In this document: positions 21,180 to 62,052 of the stretch, piece by piece | Position numbering within the stretch: the first letter of the stretch is position 1 | How the letters are laid out: every line of letters starts with the position of its first letter | Virus record (IMG/VR): IMGVR_UViG_3300009104_000009 | Coordinates: 1 to 64,000 of that record | Length of the DNA: 64,000 nt | Strand: one strand, 5' to 3' | Source: a virus | Made by a program: the position numbers and the translations under genes | Notes under the pieces: generated by a model | Told to the model about the DNA's origin: nothing | What the model saw: only the letters and a program-made list of their open reading frames with translations | The model's database searches: none

Positions 21180-22888
21180 TAACATTTAAATCCGTCCGTT
21201 ACAAAAATTTTTTAAGTAGCGGCAATGTCTTTACTCAGATAGATCTTGATAGATCTAAAACAACTCTTATCATTGGAGAAAACGGAGCGGGCAAAAGTAC
21301 TATGCTCGATGCGTTAACGTTTGGATTATTCGGGAAACCATTTCGAAGTGTTAATAAACCTCAATTAGTAAATTCAATTAATGAAAGAGAAGCGGTTGTT
21401 GAGGTTGAATTTTATGTCGGTAAAAAACATATTTTGGTCCGCAGAGGAATTAAGCCAAATATTTTCGAAATAGAAACAGATGGTTCTCAATTACAACAAA
21501 ATGCAAACGTAAGAGATTTTCAAGAATTTTTAGAAAAAAATGTTTTAAAGTTAAATTATAAATCATTTACTCAAATAGTAATTTTAGGAAACTCTTCATT
21601 TGTTCCTTTCATGCAGTTGAAAGCAGCAGACAGAAGAGATATCATAGAAGACTTGTTAGATATTCAAATATTTTCTTCTATGAATAATGTTCTTAAAACA
21701 TATGTATTAGAGAACAAAATAAAAATAGATGAAAATAAATCTTCCAGGGATTTGCTCCAAAATAAAATAGATTTAAAAGAAAATTATATTTCAAAATTAA
21801 AGCATAAAACTAAAACTCTTATAACTGGCTATGAAAAAGATATTACAAAATCTTTAGAAGAAAAAGAATCTCGTTTAACACAAATTAGTGAACTTAATAA
21901 AACAGTTGAAGATCTTTTAAATGAAGTATCTGATGCTAACGAAGTAACAGAAAAACATGATAAACTTACAGAATATCAACGTTCCATTCTCAGAAATGTT
22001 GATTCCGAACAAAAGAATATCACCTTCTTTGAGTCAAACGATGACTGTCCGACATGTAAGCAGAACATCGACCACGCCTTCAAACACAAAGAAATTATAC
22101 AAAAGCAAGAAAAGATCAAAGAATTTAAAAATGCAGTCAATAAAATTGATGGAGAACTTGAATCAACCAGAGCACGATTATCTGCTATACAATCAATTCA
22201 AGGAAACATACAAAACCATCAAACGTCCATACAAACAATCAATAATGATATAAGTGTAATTGATCAGTATGTTAAAAAACAACAAGATAATATTGAACAG
22301 TTAGAACAGGATACTGGTGACATAAAAGAAGAGAAAAAATTATTAAAAGAATACGCAGAAGAATTTAAAGAGATAGAGGCCAAAACAGAAGAATTGATTG
22401 ATGAAAAATTTATACATGAAACGGCCAGAAATATCTTGAAAGATGAAGGAATAAAGTCTAGAATAATAAAACAATATTTGCCAATCATGAATAAATTGAT
22501 TAACAAATATTTAACTCAAATGAACTTTTTCGTATCTTTCAATCTTGATGAGAATTTTAACGAAGAAATAAAATCAAGATATAGAGATGATTTTACATAT
22601 GATTCTTTTAGTGAAGGCGAAAAAATGAGAATTGATTTAGCATTATTGTTCACATGGAGAACAGTTGCGAAATTAAAAAATTCAGTTAATACTAATTTAT
22701 TAATATTAGATGAAGTATTTGATAGTTCTTTAGATGGAGAAGGCACTGATGAATTTATGAAGATAGTCAATGAACAAGGAAACAACACAAATGTTTTTGT
22801 AATTTCTCACAAAGGAGATACCTTATATGACAAATTTAGAGTACATATGAAATTTGAAAAACGAAAAAACTTTAGTGTAATATTATGA
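21176..22888 (+). CDS. gp46: Recombination endonuclease ATPase subunit (Rad50/SbcC-like)
   Basis: GENGAGKST, CPTC zinc hook, FSEGEK, LILDEVFD. Confidence 0.96.
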   Translation: MITFKSVRYKNFLSSGNVFTQIDLDRSKTTLIIGENGAGKSTMLDALTFGLFGKPFRSVNKPQLVNSINEREAVVEVEFYVGKKHILVRRGIKPNIFEIETDGSQLQQNANVRDFQEFLEKNVLKLNYKSFTQIVILGNSSFVPFMQLKAADRRDIIEDLLDIQIFSSMNNVLKTYVLENKIKIDENKSSRDLLQNKIDLKENYISKLKHKTKTLITGYEKDITKSLEEKESRLTQISELNKTVEDLLNEVSDANEVTEKHDKLTEYQRSILRNVDSEQKNITFFESNDDCPTCKQNIDHAFKHKEIIQKQEKIKEFKNAVNKIDGELESTRARLSAIQSIQGNIQNHQTSIQTINNDISVIDQYVKKQQDNIEQLEQDTGDIKEEKKLLKEYAEEFKEIEAKTEELIDEKFIHETARNILKDEGIKSRIIKQYLPIMNKLINKYLTQMNFFVSFNLDENFNEEIKSRYRDDFTYDSFSEGEKMRIDLALLFTWRTVAKLKNSVNTNLLILDEVFDSSLDGEGTDEFMKIVNEQGNNTNVFVISHKGDTLYDKFRVHMKFEKRKNFSVIL

Positions 22889-23457
22889 TTAAACCTTTGT
22901 TACCAGAAGGTCATATTGATTTAGAAACAGAAACTATTCCATTTAGTTTCTGGAGTCCTCCTATTAACCCTACTGAATTCCAGGATGAATTAATAGAAAA
23001 TATGCAACACTATAAAGGAGCTGGTTTAGCTGCTAATCAATTAGGTTATAAGTATAGTGTTTTTTCTATGAATCACGAAGGAAATAATATGGTATTGTTT
23101 AACCCTCAAATTATTGAAGAGTCTGAAGATTATGTTTGGGAGGTTGAAGGGTGTTTAACATATCCCGGACTGTTCATTAAAATTAAGCGACCTAAAAGTT
23201 TATCGGCGTCATGGGAAGATGCAAATGGAGAAAATTTTTCAGGTTATTTTTCCGACTTATCCGCTCGGATTTTTCTACATGAGATGACCCATATAAAAGG
23301 GGAAATTTTTTATGAAGAAGCTAGTCGGTTTCATATACAAAATGGAAGAAGAAAAAGAAGAGCAAATCTTAAAAAAATAAAATACTCGAGTCCAGCATTA
23401 TGGCAAAGTCATTTAAACAACAAAAAACAAGAGAGAATTTTAGCAAAGACGTTTTGA
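22885..23457 (+). CDS. def: Peptide deformylase
   Basis: GAGLAANQLG, EGCLT, HEMTH. Confidence 0.9.
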   Translation: MIKPLLPEGHIDLETETIPFSFWSPPINPTEFQDELIENMQHYKGAGLAANQLGYKYSVFSMNHEGNNMVLFNPQIIEESEDYVWEVEGCLTYPGLFIKIKRPKSLSASWEDANGENFSGYFSDLSARIFLHEMTHIKGEIFYEEASRFHIQNGRRKRRANLKKIKYSSPALWQSHLNNKKQERILAKTF

Positions 23458-23570
23458 AAAAAATGTCAAAAAAGGAAAGGCGATTCAATAAGGAATTGGC
23501 CAATCAATATGTCGATGATGAAGTCGACGACTTCGAAGAAGAGGAATATGAGTACAGTAACCGAGAGTAA
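23400..23570 (+). CDS. Small basic/acidic protein (56 aa, not in ORF track)
   Basis: MAKSFKQQKTRENFSKDVLKKMSKKERRFNKELANQYVDDEVDDFEEEEYEYSNRE; overlaps both neighbours. Confidence 0.55.
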   Translation: MAKSFKQQKTRENFSKDVLKKMSKKERRFNKELANQYVDDEVDDFEEEEYEYSNRE

Positions 23571-24075
23571 TCAACCCAGAATATACAAATATAACAGTAC
23601 AAAGGAATACGTAGATAAGTTTCCGTGTGCATATAGACAATGGAAAGCAGATAGTCATTGTAATGTTATTCACGGATATAGTTTTAGTATGAGATTCTTT
23701 TTTGGTACTGATCATTTAGATGTTAGAAACTGGGTTGCTGATTATGGTGGTCTGGGAGAACTTAAAAGTTTCTTAGATGAAATATTTGATCATACATTGT
23801 TAGTAGCAGAAGATGAGCCACACATGGATCTTTATAAACAATTGGAAGCAGCGGGTATAGCAAAACTTACTGTATTACCAAAACTTGGATGTGAAGGTCT
23901 TTCTTCAATGTTATACAAATATATGAATGGAGTGTTTATTCCTGATATGTGGGGGCCAGGTGAAGCGGAAAGACTTTGGTGTTACAGAGTAGAAGTTCGT
24001 GAAACACAAAGTAATATGGCTTGGCGTGAAGGTCATAGAGAATGGAATGAAGATTTATTTAATGTAGACGGATAA
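23548..24075 (+). CDS. queD: 6-carboxytetrahydropterin synthase (QueD/PTPS family)
   Basis: HCNVIHGYS, FDHTLLV, VEVRET. Confidence 0.85.
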   Translation: MSTVTESNQPRIYKYNSTKEYVDKFPCAYRQWKADSHCNVIHGYSFSMRFFFGTDHLDVRNWVADYGGLGELKSFLDEIFDHTLLVAEDEPHMDLYKQLEAAGIAKLTVLPKLGCEGLSSMLYKYMNGVFIPDMWGPGEAERLWCYRVEVRETQSNMAWREGHREWNEDLFNVDG

Positions 24076-38692: not shown

Positions 38693-39888
38693 AAAAATTT
38701 AAAGAATATTTTAAACCAGTTCAGGAAAAAGAAGAACTTAAAGAAGAAGTTCTTGAAGAGGCTGTTTATTGGCAAGTATTAATTCCTGGTATATCAACTC
38801 CTGTTTTTATTGAAGGACCTGCAAAGTCAGGTATTAAAATGGAATTGAGAACGCAATTAAAACCGGAAGCTTGGAAGAATCTAATCATTAATAGAATCAC
38901 GAAGCCTCAAATACGAAAAATATATAGGGATATGGCGAAAGATCCCGAAATGTATGATGATGCATCAGATGGTGTTAGTGAAGCTCTTGAAGAATCTACT
39001 GCATCATATGCAAAGTCTTTGGAAAAGATTGCTAGAGATAGACAATTAAAGATGCTCTCTAAATCTGAAAGACAAAATTTACTTAAAATAGCGGCACTCT
39101 TAGATAAAGAAAAAAAAGAAGAAGTTGAATTTGATGAGGGTATTATGGATACTGCGGGATTTCATAATTATCCAAAAAGAAATAAAGTGGGAGATGAAAT
39201 AGAAAAAATTGCAAGTAAAGGTGGAACAGATAAATTCAACCTTTCAAAAGTTGCTTCTGAATTACAGAAGGGTAGAATCCCACATAAGTTTATTAAAAAA
39301 CTCAGTCCAAAAGGTAAGAAAGCAGTTCATGATATTATGAAAGATTTTGGATGGAAAGAATTACCAGAAGATAATGAAGTAAATGAAGTTCCGTTCGTCC
39401 CGTTAGCTTTAGGAGCTGCGAGAATAGGTGGAGCAATCTTAAAAGGTGTAGGGCGCGGAGCAGGCAGAATCGGCACAGCCGGAGCAGGATTTGGTTTAGG
39501 GCAAGCAGCGAATGCAATATCAAAAATACCAAGCTCTGTAGGTAAGGCAGTCGCAGGTGGTGTTGCAGCAGGGGCTACAAAAGCGGCAATTAGTCATCAT
39601 TTATCAAATAAGGCTAAAGAGAAAGCAAAAAAAGATAAAGAAAAAAAAGAAGAGAGTAGAGAACCTAGAATTCATATGAAAGCAATTGATGAGAAAATGG
39701 CTGATAAGTATAAAGCAATGAATAAAGCCGGTGATCAGATAATGAAACTCGCAAAAAAGTATAAATCATTTGATTTAACGAGTATCGCTTCTGAATTAAG
39801 AAAAGGCAAAATTCCAAAAATTAATAAGTTAAAACCGAATGATTTTAAAGAAGTAGGTGCAATTTACGATAAACTGGGGTTGAGATAA
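38689..39888 (+). CDS. Modular putative internal head protein
   Basis: MKKFKEY leader; modules separated by hydrophobic-x-E sites; Gly-zipper segment. Confidence 0.5.
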   Translation: MKKFKEYFKPVQEKEELKEEVLEEAVYWQVLIPGISTPVFIEGPAKSGIKMELRTQLKPEAWKNLIINRITKPQIRKIYRDMAKDPEMYDDASDGVSEALEESTASYAKSLEKIARDRQLKMLSKSERQNLLKIAALLDKEKKEEVEFDEGIMDTAGFHNYPKRNKVGDEIEKIASKGGTDKFNLSKVASELQKGRIPHKFIKKLSPKGKKAVHDIMKDFGWKELPEDNEVNEVPFVPLALGAARIGGAILKGVGRGAGRIGTAGAGFGLGQAANAISKIPSSVGKAVAGGVAAGATKAAISHHLSNKAKEKAKKDKEKKEESREPRIHMKAIDEKMADKYKAMNKAGDQIMKLAKKYKSFDLTSIASELRKGKIPKINKLKPNDFKEVGAIYDKLGLR

Positions 39889-40262
39889 TGAAATCATTTC
39901 GAACATTTATAAAAGTTGAAGGTTTAAATCATGATCGTTATATGAGATCTCATGGTAAAAAAGCCAAAGGTACAGGAAAGTGGGCATTTACCACTAAGAG
40001 AATGGGTGATGTAGATATGGGTAATGATAAAGAGTTTTGGACGTCAGGCCCAAATCAATCTTTATCTAAAGCCGCTAAAGATGCTCAAAAAGCTTTACAC
40101 ACAAAAGATGTTTATGTAATGGAAAAATTAGGTAAAGATTCTACTATGGGCGATTATATTGATGATTTTAAAAAATCTGATGCACCACAATTTAAGGGTA
40201 GATCTAAAGAAAAACGAAAGCAAATGGCTATTGCTGCCAAATTATCCGCAGACGAGAAATGA
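39888..40262 (+). CDS. Putative internal head protein
   Basis: MKSFRTFIKVE leader; DDFKKSDAPQFKGRSKEKRKQMAIAAKL. Confidence 0.5.
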   Translation: MKSFRTFIKVEGLNHDRYMRSHGKKAKGTGKWAFTTKRMGDVDMGNDKEFWTSGPNQSLSKAAKDAQKALHTKDVYVMEKLGKDSTMGDYIDDFKKSDAPQFKGRSKEKRKQMAIAAKLSADEK

Positions 40263-40622
40263 ATGATATCGTTTACAGAGAGGGCCGCCAACGTGGTACT
40301 CAAGATTATGGGCGAACAAAATGTTAGTCAAGAGACGTTTTGCAGAATAGGTGTAAAAGGTGGCGGATGTTCGGGATTTACTTATACTGTAGATTTTGAT
40401 AGTAGAAAAAGTAAATTTGATTTAGAATTTGAAAGCCACGGGCTCACTTGCGTGGTAGATAAAAAAAGTCATTTATATATAAAAGGAACAGAAATAGATT
40501 GGTCTAATGATTTAAATGATCGCGGACTAAAGTTTAATAACCCATCTGCGAAAGGCAGTTGTGGTTGTAGAACATCATTTATGCACGAGGGAATGAATGC
40601 AGGAACACCAAGTTGGATGTGA
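40263..40622 (+). CDS. iscA: A-type Fe-S carrier (IscA/HesB family) 1
   Basis: RIGVKGGGCSGF, FNNP...SCGC. Confidence 0.9.
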   Translation: MISFTERAANVVLKIMGEQNVSQETFCRIGVKGGGCSGFTYTVDFDSRKSKFDLEFESHGLTCVVDKKSHLYIKGTEIDWSNDLNDRGLKFNNPSAKGSCGCRTSFMHEGMNAGTPSWM

Positions 40623-55769: not shown

Positions 55770-56066
55770 ATGTACAAACCGCTTCCACACAATATTACAA
55801 TTAAAGAATCTCCCATTGAAGGCTTAGGCCTTTTCGCAACAGAAAAAATTACAGCACAAACATTGATTGGAATCACTCATCACGCTGATGAGCGAGCGGA
55901 AGATGGGTGGATTAGAACTCCTTTAGGCGGCTTTGGAAATCATTCGGACGATCCCAACTGCTTCAAACTTTTAATGGACCCCAAAACTTTTTGGATTGGA
56001 GCTAATCGAGATATTAAACCTGGAGAAGAACTGACGTGGAGCTATACATTATATAAATGTGACTAA
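55770..56066 (+). CDS. Minimal SET-domain protein
   Basis: SPIEGLGLFA, NHSDDPNC, RDIKPGEELTWSY. Confidence 0.88.
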   Translation: MYKPLPHNITIKESPIEGLGLFATEKITAQTLIGITHHADERAEDGWIRTPLGGFGNHSDDPNCFKLLMDPKTFWIGANRDIKPGEELTWSYTLYKCD

Positions 56067-56589
56067 ACATTTATACGGAGAAAAGAAGATGCCGATACAC
56101 AAGCATTTACTTGTCCGCGCAGAAGTAAAGCGCCCGATCACAGAAGAAAAAGAAATTAAAAAATGGTTAAAAAAATTAGTAAATAAAATTGATATGAAAA
56201 TCATTAAGGGTCCTTTCGCAGGCTACGTTCATAAGGATGGAAACCGCGGATTGACAGGCGCCGTAATGATAGAAACAAGTCATATATCAATACATATTTG
56301 GGATGAACCAGACCCAGCATTAGTACAATTTGATGTTTATTCATGCGCGGAATATTCTACTAATGAAGTTTTAGCAGAACTTATAATAATGGAACCAGTT
56401 AAAGTTGAACACATGCTTATAGATAGAGATAGTAAACCAGAGGACATTAAACCAGGTCTTTATGGTAGTTGTTTTAAAATGACAAATCATTCAGTTTCTG
56501 AACACAAATCACATCCAAAAATACAAAAATATGATGATGAAGAGCGAAAAGAAATAATCAGAAAAGGTTATATATCTAGTTACGAATAA
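56059..56589 (+). CDS. speD: S-adenosylmethionine decarboxylase proenzyme-like
   Basis: GLTGAVMIETSHISIHIW...DVYSC. Confidence 0.8.
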   Translation: MTKHLYGEKKMPIHKHLLVRAEVKRPITEEKEIKKWLKKLVNKIDMKIIKGPFAGYVHKDGNRGLTGAVMIETSHISIHIWDEPDPALVQFDVYSCAEYSTNEVLAELIIMEPVKVEHMLIDRDSKPEDIKPGLYGSCFKMTNHSVSEHKSHPKIQKYDDEERKEIIRKGYISSYE

Positions 56590-57536: not shown

Positions 57537-58373
57537 ATGTCAGAAAATCTTCAAGAAAAACCCGCATTTTGCGATATACCTGGCGGTCCTAGGGATCCAA
57601 ATCTTAAAGCACGATGTGCAAAGCCTGATGCTCCCGCCGCGCCTAAAAAACCTGCTGACATTAGATCTAAAGCTCTAACGGACACGGAAAAGAAAAGAAA
57701 AAGAATACAGAGTTTGGGTCTTACACATGAAAGTGAAAAGAAAGAATCTTTCAAGCAATTCAAAGATAGAATTACATTGGAAGCAAATTTAAATGATTAC
57801 GTTAAAAAATATAAAATGAAAATGGGTGATAAAACTTCTACAGTAGATAAAGATAAATGGGTTGAAGGTATTGGTGGATTAACTAAGAGAGAGCAAGCAA
57901 CCCTAAAACGTGTATTACAAGGACATACCAGAGAAGGTGTAAAGGAAGACGCTGAATTTGCTGATGAGTTAGAATTAGTAGAATTAGCTCCGGTAATAGG
58001 TCTTGCAATAAGGGGTGCCGCGGCTGCTACAAAAACACCGATTAGACGAGCAATTACGAAGCATGTAGTAAAAAAAGCAGTAAACAAAGCAACCTCACCT
58101 CCTCCACCTTCAAATAATGAAGAAGTAGTAAATGAGAGTAAGGAACTTCAAGCTAAGATGGCGTTAGATGATGCAAAGATTAAGTATAAAGTAGAAGATG
58201 GTAAGATATATGTGGATAAAAAAGATCTTATGAAAGCTGAAAAGACCGTAGCAAAATCATTTAGAGTTAAGCCTAGAAACTTAGATGGGAAAAAATATCC
58301 CGCATTATATTATCACGGCGGAAGTTTAGGCATATGGAATAAGAAAAGACCTATAACAGGAATGGGTAGATGA
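57537..58373 (+). CDS. Modular putative internal head protein
   Basis: Internal ESFKQFK..ITLEA, LVE-LAPVIGLA, VNE-SK sites. Confidence 0.45.
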   Translation: MSENLQEKPAFCDIPGGPRDPNLKARCAKPDAPAAPKKPADIRSKALTDTEKKRKRIQSLGLTHESEKKESFKQFKDRITLEANLNDYVKKYKMKMGDKTSTVDKDKWVEGIGGLTKREQATLKRVLQGHTREGVKEDAEFADELELVELAPVIGLAIRGAAAATKTPIRRAITKHVVKKAVNKATSPPPPSNNEEVVNESKELQAKMALDDAKIKYKVEDGKIYVDKKDLMKAEKTVAKSFRVKPRNLDGKKYPALYYHGGSLGIWNKKRPITGMGR

Positions 58374-58867
58374 GAACGTTTATAGAACATGTAATAATTG
58401 AACAAGAATTACGTATGGATAGAGAATTGCAAAATATTCTTATGATTCATGCTAAAGATTATAAATTATTCAGAGAAGGTAAACAGGAACTATCAGAGTT
58501 ACCTCATTTGTATAATGATTTAGTAAAACATTGGCAGACAGATATGCCGTACGGAGTAACAAAAGCCCGTGAGGGTGACCCCTATGAATGGATTGCGAAC
58601 AAATTGAATAGTATTGAAGAACACGGTGAGCCAATGCCAAAGTCATTAGTTCACAATTGAGCTACACACGTTAAACATCCAAGTTTGGGTGATGAAGAAT
58701 TAGAAGTAATAAGTCACAGTTTAGATGAAGATGGTAGAATAGAACAATACAGAGTTAAACCGCCACGCAATGCTCAAATTGGTTCAACAGTAGTTCTGCA
58801 AGCAGAAGAAGTTACTGTAACTAGAGAGCACAGTCACAAACACAAGGTAAAACCCAAAATTAAATAA
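58370..58867 (+). CDS. Putative selenoprotein (165 aa, Sec97), His-rich C-terminal domain, capsid-targeting-like leader
   Basis: Track ORFs 58370-58660 and 58685-58867 are one frame split only by TGA 58658-58660 (HN-U-ATHVKHP); SECIS-like hairpin at 58676-58691. Confidence 0.7.
58676..58691 (+). promoter_or_regulatory. Putative bacterial SECIS element
   Basis: CAUCCA-AGUU-UGGGUG, starting 15 nt after UGA. Confidence 0.6.
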
Positions 58868-59601: not shown

Positions 59602-60721
59602 ACCTTGCCTAGCACCTTTTAACTCAATTTTTCATAATTATGATGGTGCTACTTCTGTATGCTGTCACAGACCTGTTGAGATCACAGGTAAGACCCTACA
59701 CGAGAGCATGCACGATGAGAAACTACAAGCAATAAGAAGAAGTTTCGCTAAAGGAGAGACACCTCCAGAGTGTCGGTTATGTCCTAAGCAGATGAGAGAG
59801 TATCATACTGAGAATATCTCTAAGAATATTAAAAGTATTTCATTAGAAAATAAGTTCACTCCAGTAGCTGTAGATTTCTTCTGGTCTAATAAGTGTAATT
59901 TCGCATGCTTAGGGTGTGATAGTTATAAGAGCTCAACAATTGATAAGAATTTTAGAGAGATATATGAGATAATAGATCATCAGAGGCCTGTTCCTAATAT
60001 AGGATATGATAAGCAAGAGAGATTTGATTATATACTAGAAAATTCCGACAGTATTAGAATAATGCATTTATCGAGTTCCGGAGAACCATGGATTGAAGAT
60101 AATATCTATGAGTTATTAGAGCTCTTAGTAGAGCATAAGTTATTTAACATTGAAATAGCGACCCATACTAATGGAAGTATATTGAATTATAAGAATAAGA
60201 GTATGATTGATATATTAGATAATTGGAATGGTAACGCAACTGTTATAATGAGTAATGACGGTACAGGAAAAAGAGGAGAGTATGTCAGATATGGTTATAA
60301 AGATAAAATGTGGTTAAGGACGTATAATAAACTAAAAGAATCTAGCATTAACGTATATGTTCACTACTGTATGAACTTATTCAATATAATGTATCTCAGA
60401 GAAGATGCAGAATGGTTTAAAGAGAATTGTGATGATACTGATATACTCTTAAGATATTGGGAATGGCCTTCTTTATTAACGTCTAAGTTTTTAAAATATT
60501 GGGGTGATTTGTATGACGAATCAATTGATTCATTCAATAGCGCGAAATCCTATTATAAGGATTCGGAGTATGCTGAAGATTACCTAAATACTATAGGGAG
60601 AGGAAATAATTTTAAAGATGATGTTTCGCGATTTAGTTCATTTATACAGAAGATAGATGAAAAAAGAAATACTGATTTTGTAAAAACTTTTCCAAAGTTG
60701 AATGAGATTGTTTTATGGTAG
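59591..60721 (+). CDS. Twitch/SPASM-domain radical SAM protein
   Basis: CLAPF...VCC...ECRLC; NKCNFACLGC; GEP; TNGS. Confidence 0.82.
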   Translation: MITKPCLAPFNSIFHNYDGATSVCCHRPVEITGKTLHESMHDEKLQAIRRSFAKGETPPECRLCPKQMREYHTENISKNIKSISLENKFTPVAVDFFWSNKCNFACLGCDSYKSSTIDKNFREIYEIIDHQRPVPNIGYDKQERFDYILENSDSIRIMHLSSSGEPWIEDNIYELLELLVEHKLFNIEIATHTNGSILNYKNKSMIDILDNWNGNATVIMSNDGTGKRGEYVRYGYKDKMWLRTYNKLKESSINVYVHYCMNLFNIMYLREDAEWFKENCDDTDILLRYWEWPSLLTSKFLKYWGDLYDESIDSFNSAKSYYKDSEYAEDYLNTIGRGNNFKDDVSRFSSFIQKIDEKRNTDFVKTFPKLNEIVLW

Positions 60722-61395
60722 ATAATTTAAAAGAGATTATTCACAAATCTCAAATATGTCAAAGAAATTGGGATTTGAGTGAAGAGATCCCTCAAGAGCA
60801 TGTTGATTTAATTGTAGAAGCAGTTACACAAAGCCCCACCCGTCAAAATATCCCGTTCTATAATGTAGATGTTGTTACAGACAGATCTTTAATCAACAGT
60901 ATCCATAATAATTCTGCTTTTTTTAAAATTAAACCAGGTATGGAGTTATCAGAATATTCTCACGCTGTCGTTAGGGGTTCAGATGTAGAGAAGGATGAAG
61001 ATGGTGTTATCACAAAAACTAATCCTCAAGTGCTAGCTCCCTTATTACTTGTTTTTAGTGCTAATGAAGAGACTTATTACGATAATCAGTTACGACATGG
61101 TAAAGACTCTGCGGAACGTGTTAAGTGGGAAAAAGACGTAAGCCTTTCTATAGGCGTAGCATCTGGATTTGCAAAACTAATATCTACACAATTAGGATAT
61201 GTAAGTGGTTTTTGCGCTTGTTATGGTGAAGAAATAGATAAACTAATAGGATCTTCGGTACGGTTATTTCTTGGGATAGGAAAGCCTGATAAAAACAAGA
61301 AATATACAGAGAGTCATATTGAGGAATTTGAATATCCCAGCTTTAAAGATGTAAAGAGATTAAAACCTGTAAAAGTAGAGTGGCATAATGGCTAA
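60715..61395 (+). CDS. Nitroreductase-family protein
   Basis: CQRNWD, QSPTRQN, PQVLAPLLLVF, LGYVSGFCAC, LGIG. Confidence 0.75.
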   Translation: MVDNLKEIIHKSQICQRNWDLSEEIPQEHVDLIVEAVTQSPTRQNIPFYNVDVVTDRSLINSIHNNSAFFKIKPGMELSEYSHAVVRGSDVEKDEDGVITKTNPQVLAPLLLVFSANEETYYDNQLRHGKDSAERVKWEKDVSLSIGVASGFAKLISTQLGYVSGFCACYGEEIDKLIGSSVRLFLGIGKPDKNKKYTESHIEEFEYPSFKDVKRLKPVKVEWHNG

Positions 61396-61621
61396 ATGGA
61401 AAATCAGATATTGTAGTTCTTGAAACTACAAACCGAACGCAGAAAGTCTTTCTGCTGAAATGAAAAAATTAGGTTATGACGTTGAAATTGAACAAGGAGA
61501 TACTGGACAATTTGAGCTATTTAAATGGTCCACCACATTGTGGATGTCATTTATGAAAGGTGGACATGGAAAGTTCTTTGGAATACAGGAAGTGACGGAG
61601 GCATTAACTAATACGGAGTAA
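61388..61621 (+). CDS. Rdx/SelW-family selenoprotein (77 aa, CxxU; not in ORF track)
   Basis: MAKWKIRYCSS-U(TGA 61421-61423)-NYKPNAESLSAEMKKLGYDVEIEQGDTGQFELF; fills the gap exactly. Confidence 0.88.
61439..61455 (+). promoter_or_regulatory. Putative bacterial SECIS element
   Basis: GCAGAA-AGUCU-UUCUGC, starting 15 nt after UGA. Confidence 0.75.
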
Positions 61622-61623
61622 AT

Positions 61624-62052
61624 ATGGTTTTTGGACTTGGAGATCAAGAAGAACAGAGAACTAAAGAATTATTTGTAAGTAAGAATTTTAAATCACATTC
61701 AGGATTAGACTTAACATGGAAAATAGAGATGGACGCGTTAATGGATTCCGAATGGTTTACGATCAAGAAAATGATCATGGAGATAACACCTCCTTTTAGA
61801 GAAGCAGTCGGTATTCCACGTGGTGGAGTTAAGCTCGGCAATCTTCTCAACGAACACGCAACAGGGAAAAAAGAAGATCCTATTTGTATAGTAGATGATG
61901 TATTAACTACAGGTGAGTCAATGGAAGAATTTTTAACACAATATCAACGTAATCGCGAACCATTTACAGCGATCGGTTGGGTAGTATTTGCGAGAACACA
62001 ATGTCCGTCATGGGTAAACGCGGTATTTCAAATGCCATATTTAGCTGTATAG
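61624..62052 (+). CDS. pyrE: Phosphoribosyltransferase (orotate PRTase-like)
   Basis: FKSHSG, GIPRGG, IVDDVLTTGES. Confidence 0.75.
   Translation: MVFGLGDQEEQRTKELFVSKNFKSHSGLDLTWKIEMDALMDSEWFTIKKMIMEITPPFREAVGIPRGGVKLGNLLNEHATGKKEDPICIVDDVLTTGESMEEFLTQYQRNREPFTAIGWVVFARTQCPSWVNAVFQMPYLAV

Follow-up and report, generated by a model that had tools for sequence, protein, structure and literature searches.

On the plus strand of the window, which comprises the initial 64,000 nucleotides of an 83,891-bp IMG/VR virus record, positions 61388-61621 hold a Rdx/SelW-like open reading frame of 77 codons followed by TAA (61619-61621). The sole interruption of this frame is a TGA at codon 12 (61421-61423), situated within Y-C-S-S-TGA-N-Y. 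The initial annotation had described a 228-nt intergenic gap filled by one ORF whose ATG overlaps the end of the upstream gene and whose TAA lies 2 nt ahead of the next ATG, and all of this was reproduced: the start codon (61388-61390) overlaps by 8 nt the upstream ORF, which runs to 61395 (TAA at 61393-61395), and the downstream ATG is at 61624. Within the frame, a C-S-S-U redox motif (61412-61423) consists of Cys9 (61412-61414), two serines and the putative selenocysteine (Sec) codon TGA; it is followed by a 15-nt spacer (61424-61438) and by a SECIS-like hairpin (61439-61455) with a 5' arm at 61439-61445, the loop GTC at 61446-61448 and a 3' arm at 61449-61455. Further downstream, codons 40-44 (61505-61519) encode G-Q-F-E-L, the Rdx G-x-F-E signature, in the predicted strand beta3. 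Public gene calls contain just a 51-58-aa piece downstream of the TGA, and some database entries have Trp at the TGA site, which resembles gene calls made with translation table 4.

The record is 46% complete according to CheckV, and its plus strand holds every long ORF of the genome. The major capsid protein is approximately 66% identical to its counterparts in cyanophages P-TIM40 and S-WAM1 and in Methylophilales phage Melnitz, and the large terminase is approximately 58% identical to the enzyme of Pelagibacter phage HTVC008M; the phage is therefore a marine T4-like myovirus. T4-like cyanophages carry psbA. This gene is absent from two complete relatives of the phage (134.5 kb and 177 kb), which argues for heterotrophic bacterial hosts, hence the phage probably infects a heterotrophic bacterium and not a cyanobacterium, and no host can be named.

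Rdx-family proteins (SelW/SelT/SelH-like) are characterised by a C-x-x-U/C motif after beta1 and by a G-x-F-E motif. The ORF had been proposed to be a hidden gene for such a CxxU protein, and a search with the Rdx HMM, with U replaced by Cys, had been set beforehand as the test of this proposal. The test was passed, as the protein scored 31.0 bits (E 3e-7) against Pfam Rdx (PF10262; gathering threshold 22.6 bits) over residues 5-68 and profile positions 3-67 of 74, and both the motif and the predicted fold agree with the assignment. A six-frame search of the genome also matched Rdx, at 22.8 bits, the match extending across the stop. The best NCBIfam matches were the SelT/SelW/SelH models, though at scores below their cut-offs: 40.1 bits against 88 for NF041051 (SelTWH_Campy) and 24.4 bits against 34.2 for TIGR02174 (CXXU_selWTH). 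Because neither cut-off was reached, we regard the protein as a member of a divergent Rdx subfamily and not as an equivalog.

An AlphaFold (AF2) model built on 14 homologues (pLDDT 88) predicts a thioredoxin-like arrangement, beta1-alpha1-beta2-beta3-beta4-alpha2, in which C9-S-S-U12 is found between strand 3-9 (beta1) and helix 15-27 (alpha1). The top Foldseek matches in the PDB were all SelW-related or Rdx proteins with TM scores of 0.63-0.74. The best of them were the bacterial SelW-related proteins 2p0g from Vibrio, 2fa8 from Agrobacterium (TM 0.74), 3dex from Streptomyces and 2oka and 2obk from Pseudomonas, together with MIEN1 (2ljk) and mouse SelW (2npb). The phage protein shares the predicted fold and an aligned redox motif with all of these, but is only 15-22% identical to the solved SelW-related proteins, and the bacterial ones carry CxxC and have no established function. 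In a profile search of the PDB, the TGA aligned with the second Cys of CxxC in MIEN1 and in 2p0g. Distant bacterial Rdx proteins likewise have Cys at the TGA position; of the distant relatives, just one carries a name, and it is an Rdx protein of the Cys form from a Polyangiales MAG. The G-Q-F-E-L motif is invariant in the alignment of 14 sequences and aligns with G-x-F-E of the Rdx proteins in the PDB. The fold and the CxxU motif allow a thiol/selenol oxidoreductase activity to be inferred, no biochemistry being available; protection of Fe-S enzymes or regulation of host proteins by the product is speculation.

Relatives of the gene were not easily found. Megablast and tblastn searches of 50,697 deposited phage genomes yielded no homologue, the Rdx-like protein belongs to no PHROGs family, and a scan of viral contigs with the single protein returned nothing; relatives surfaced only when a pattern derived from an alignment was used. 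The resulting set comprises 98 related loci, namely 17 viral, one MAG contig and 80 from marine metagenomes. At the same C-x-x-U position, 95 of the 98 have TGA, three have CGA and none has a Cys codon; with the window included, the figures are 96 TGA, three identical CGA and no Cys among 99 loci. No Cys locus was recovered even with one search pattern written specifically for that form. Among distinct gene sequences, 70 of 71 have the TGA, and the TGA and its flanks are kept at 44-69% identity. Frameshifts or extra stops in relatives, which had been named as the observation that would mark a pseudogene, do not occur. As this frame is maintained throughout the 98 loci, the ORF is not a fortuitous one.

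The stretch before the TGA (codons 4-11) is under purifying selection across the 71 distinct genes (dN/dS 0.17), and dN/dS downstream of the TGA is 0.23. Synonymous changes before the TGA occur in Ile, Lys, Tyr, Cys and Gly codons, and in relatives the Shine-Dalgarno-like runs GGGGGAG, GAGGAGG and AAGGAG precede the equivalent ATG, 5' of the TGA. The low dN/dS, the abundant synonymous change and the upstream position of these runs together indicate that the N-terminal peptide is translated in frame with the rest of the protein. Since Sec is strictly retained and Cys occurs in 0 of 98 loci, the data also suggest that selenium chemistry itself is needed by the phage Rdx protein.

The three loci with CGA (Arg) come from three samples (L094, codon at 522-524; L095; L098) and retain both the ORF and the hairpin. 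A database cluster related to them (P0007) also has Arg at this position. This sub-lineage may have lost Sec, and its existence counts against the interpretation of the codon as Sec. Two marine metagenomic (Tara) proteins related to the phage Rdx clade, P0012 and P0024, have a shortened CxxU stretch, Y-C-K-E-Y-Y-P and Y-C-D-N-F-F, respectively; as this removes the second redox residue, they may have become inactive or monothiol forms. Among 185,579 species genomes, the sole close relative was a 2,240-bp contig (L019, JAKUSK010000076.1) of a Nitrososphaerales MAG. Its Rdx protein is identical to that of a viral locus (L009), TGA included; the contig therefore most likely derives from a phage and was mis-binned into the archaeal MAG.

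The hairpin downstream of the TGA, GCAGAAA-GTC-TTTCTGC, has a 7-bp stem and encodes A-E-S-L-S-A of helix 1. Across 56 distinct sequences in a gap-free alignment, its 15-nt distance from the TGA is constant, 96% of the hairpin cells are paired and the first base of the loop is invariably G. The changes that are seen in the stem are G-U wobbles and one compensatory A-U to G-C pair reached via G-U intermediates, and in one lineage a re-registered hairpin is built from different codons. Synonymous change is suppressed in the hairpin codons (pS 0.24 versus 0.48-0.72 elsewhere): GAA encodes Glu19 in all 64 sequences and AGT encodes Ser20 in all 63, against 4-6 codons in other Ser/Leu columns. Conservation of the helix-1 peptide could explain a part of this sequence conservation. 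The covariation is thin, with double changes at one pair only, which counts against a SECIS function.

Published criteria for bacterial SECIS elements (bSECIS) require an apical loop of 3-9 nt, a stem of 4-16 bp and a G in the first two loop positions (PMC13188914), and further a distance of 16-37 nt from the UGA and an MFE of -7.5 kcal/mol or lower (PMC13188914). The geometry is met by the 7-bp stem and by the loop GUC (or A-GUC-U), which starts 22 nt past the UGA. The MFE of -7.3 kcal/mol is just short of the threshold; the family median is -7.55 kcal/mol for the hairpin alone and -8.0 kcal/mol for a 45-nt stretch, and 37 of the 56 sequences reach -7.5 kcal/mol. It also speaks against the assignment that the hairpin is short, AU-rich and no more stable than shuffles of the same sequence. 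Rfam has no SECIS family that matches it. In common with the Escherichia coli fdhF-type element, the phage hairpin lies in the coding sequence past the UGA and has a small loop with G followed by U or G, but it differs in being much shorter and AU-rich; its stem has 7-8 bp, a bulged U is lacking and the energy is borderline.

These comparisons demonstrate that the core gene is real, with respect to its ORF, its family membership, the conservation of the TGA, the selection on both sides of it and the conservation of the hairpin. The insertion of selenocysteine requires a dedicated tRNA, an elongation factor and two enzymes. No gene for tRNA-Sec, SelA, SelB, SelD or an EF-Tu-like protein was found in the 46%-complete record or in four relatives, of which two are complete, so the machinery must be supplied by the unidentified host. 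Sub-threshold matches to tRNA-Sec turned out to be tRNA-Tyr and tRNA-Gly genes.

From these results, a hypothesis regarding the expression of the gene may be put forward, in which the UGA at 61421-61423 is decoded as selenocysteine; we consider this likely, while direct evidence of selenium incorporation is lacking. Translation would start at the ATG at 61388, and the hairpin at 61439-61455, inside the coding sequence, would act as a bacterial-type SECIS, a role for which there are no SelB-binding data. It would recruit host SelB carrying Sec-tRNA(Sec) to the UGA, so that the phage would give the mRNA signal alone and the host would give SelA, SelB, SelC and SelD. The 77-aa product with its Cys-x-x-Sec active site would then presumably work as a thiol/selenol oxidoreductase during infection. 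Sec insertion and SelB dependence are thus inferences, and the same is true of the redox activity and its target.

The competing explanations differ mainly in what they take the TGA to be. If it were a sense codon everywhere in the phage, as in translation table 4 or 25, the residue would be Trp or Gly, and the W found at the site in several database entries would fit such a code. However, 35 of the 101 long ORFs terminate with TGA, and past these stops the next TAA or TAG follows after a median of 9 codons; 21 TGA stops stand in an ATGA start-stop overlap, several relatives terminate the Rdx gene itself with TGA, and no tRNA with a UCA anticodon was found; we reject a change of the code, which is close to refuted. 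The TGA could also be a true stop in a pseudogene or a split gene, leaving an 11-residue peptide or a 53-aa ORF from Met25 (61460-61621), in keeping with the C-terminal piece that is all the public gene callers predict. Conservation of the TGA and its flanks in 70 of the 71 distinct sequences, purifying selection ahead of it and ribosome-binding sites before the upstream ATG are difficult to reconcile with this. In addition, Met25 is present in just 42 of the 71 sequences, and the C-terminal piece alone would be devoid of beta1 and of the active site. In either form, a true stop appears very improbable.

The UGA might be read through without Sec, either by a near-cognate tRNA (Trp or Cys) or by a suppressor tRNA whose gene lies in the half of the genome that is not sequenced, with the hairpin merely slowing termination. 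The absence of Sec machinery and tRNA-Sec from the phage records, a hairpin that is small and borderline by the bSECIS energy rule, and the incompleteness of the phage genome all leave room for this. Yet the UGA occupies the Sec/Cys position of a family that is known to have Sec at this point, and if Cys or Trp worked, the single-step changes to TGT, TGC and TGG would be expected to be common and are found in none of the 98 loci. In addition, the hairpin has the hallmarks of a SECIS, namely a loop G that never varies, a U or G after it and the 22-nt spacing, and the two complete relatives have no suppressor tRNA. Readthrough without Sec is therefore unlikely in our opinion, even if it cannot be dismissed as readily as the other two, and decoding as selenocysteine remains the preferred interpretation.

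A second candidate selenoprotein gene, unrelated to the Rdx gene, is located at 58370-58867 (165 codons). It has an H-N-U-A-T-H motif and no Pfam family. Its TGA (58658-58660) is followed by a 15-nt spacer and a 6-bp hairpin (58676-58691) with the loop AGUU, and both the TGA and the hairpin are kept in two relatives (L020 and L021) at 65-67% identity. Three other relatives have only the N-terminal domain and end with a different TGA; database entries for this gene show W at the TGA site. When plus-strand TGAs of the genome were scanned for an open frame on both sides and a hairpin at a spacer of 15, only those at 61421 and 58658 were retrieved. A second gene with the same spacing and an AGU-type loop was counted in favour of Sec decoding in the Rdx gene. 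Two gene pairs, 22885-23457/23509-24075 and 39888-40262/40263-40622, are each in the same frame and separated by TGA, with 17 and 0 codons between them, respectively. No SECIS-like hairpin was found at either (22885-24075, 39888-40622), and they are probably a coincidence.

It is conceivable, with about even chances for and against, that a widespread clade of marine T4-like phages with heterotrophic hosts has a small selenoproteome of its own, consisting of at least the SelW-like and H-N-U genes, with SECIS elements tuned to the SelB of the host. If so, phage expression would be tied to the selenium metabolism of the host and the SECIS would be a hidden determinant of host range, and a part of the SelW-like family, the most abundant selenoprotein family of the ocean, would be viral and not bacterial.

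Catalogues of selenoproteins so far cover cells and a small number of eukaryotic viruses. SelW-like selenoproteins of marine bacteria are represented in the GOS data by 427 Sec and 56 Cys forms (Zhang, Fomenko and Gladyshev 2005, PMC1088965; Zhang and Gladyshev 2008, PMC2398784). The phage protein resembles them in having CxxU after beta1, G-x-F-E and a length of approximately 75-85 aa, and its gene resembles theirs in having a SECIS hairpin within the ORF just past the UGA. Unlike those sequences, which were attributed to bacteria, the phage clade sits in T4-like phage genomes, and it bears the signatures T-G-Q-F-E-L-F and K-F-F, the latter replacing the usual R-F-P. According to a later survey, viral sequences in GOS are few or absent for selenoprotein families. 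Among eukaryotic viruses, poxviruses encode selenoproteins, the glutathione peroxidases (reviewed in PMC8310308), which differ from the phage Rdx protein in their eukaryotic 3'-UTR SECIS and in their protein family. For Basilisk-like Bacillus phages, a tRNA-SeC gene has been reported and no selenoprotein gene described (PMC6145125). Common to the poxvirus, Bacillus phage and T4-like phage cases is that the virus relies on, or adds to, the Sec recoding of its host. We found no description of phage selenoproteins in the papers searched, and the prokaryotic selenoproteome reviews of 2022 and 2026 are silent on phages. Thus, neither the protein family nor the recoding mechanism is novel in itself; what appears to be new is a whole phage clade in which Sec is strictly kept.

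If the proposed decoding is true, the gene would be functional only in hosts that read UGA as Sec, which would be a new kind of host dependence and would provide a new marker for host prediction. The gene would then also be one that gene callers miss systematically, by reporting a C-terminal fragment or a table-4 Trp, and the question would arise as to what share of the marine SelW-like signal is viral. The phage Rdx clade is, moreover, well suited to studying the role of Rdx proteins.

The genes flanking the Rdx gene did not bear out their earlier labels. The upstream ORF (60715-61395, 226 aa) had been called a nitroreductase, and no nitroreductase match was obtained for it in Pfam, NCBIfam or the sequences of solved structures; indeed, it had no match of any kind in Pfam, NCBIfam, PHROGs or PDB sequences. 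A paralogous ORF is present at genome positions 78912-79553, and the two have a common C-Q-R-N-W motif near the N-terminus. The downstream ORF, labelled pyrE, matched phosphoribosyltransferases merely below threshold, although it contains a D-D-V-L-T-T-G motif resembling a PRPP loop. Flanking genes vary among related phages, the Rdx gene being found after the capsid module in one relative and after a PRPP synthetase homologue in another. Because the neighbours change from phage to phage, the local context gives no firm functional link, and guilt by association was rejected as a guide to Rdx function. The window also contains genes for a SET-domain protein (55770-56066) and a homologue of S-adenosylmethionine decarboxylase (56059-56589), and many related phage contigs again have these two genes no more than a few kb away from the Rdx gene.
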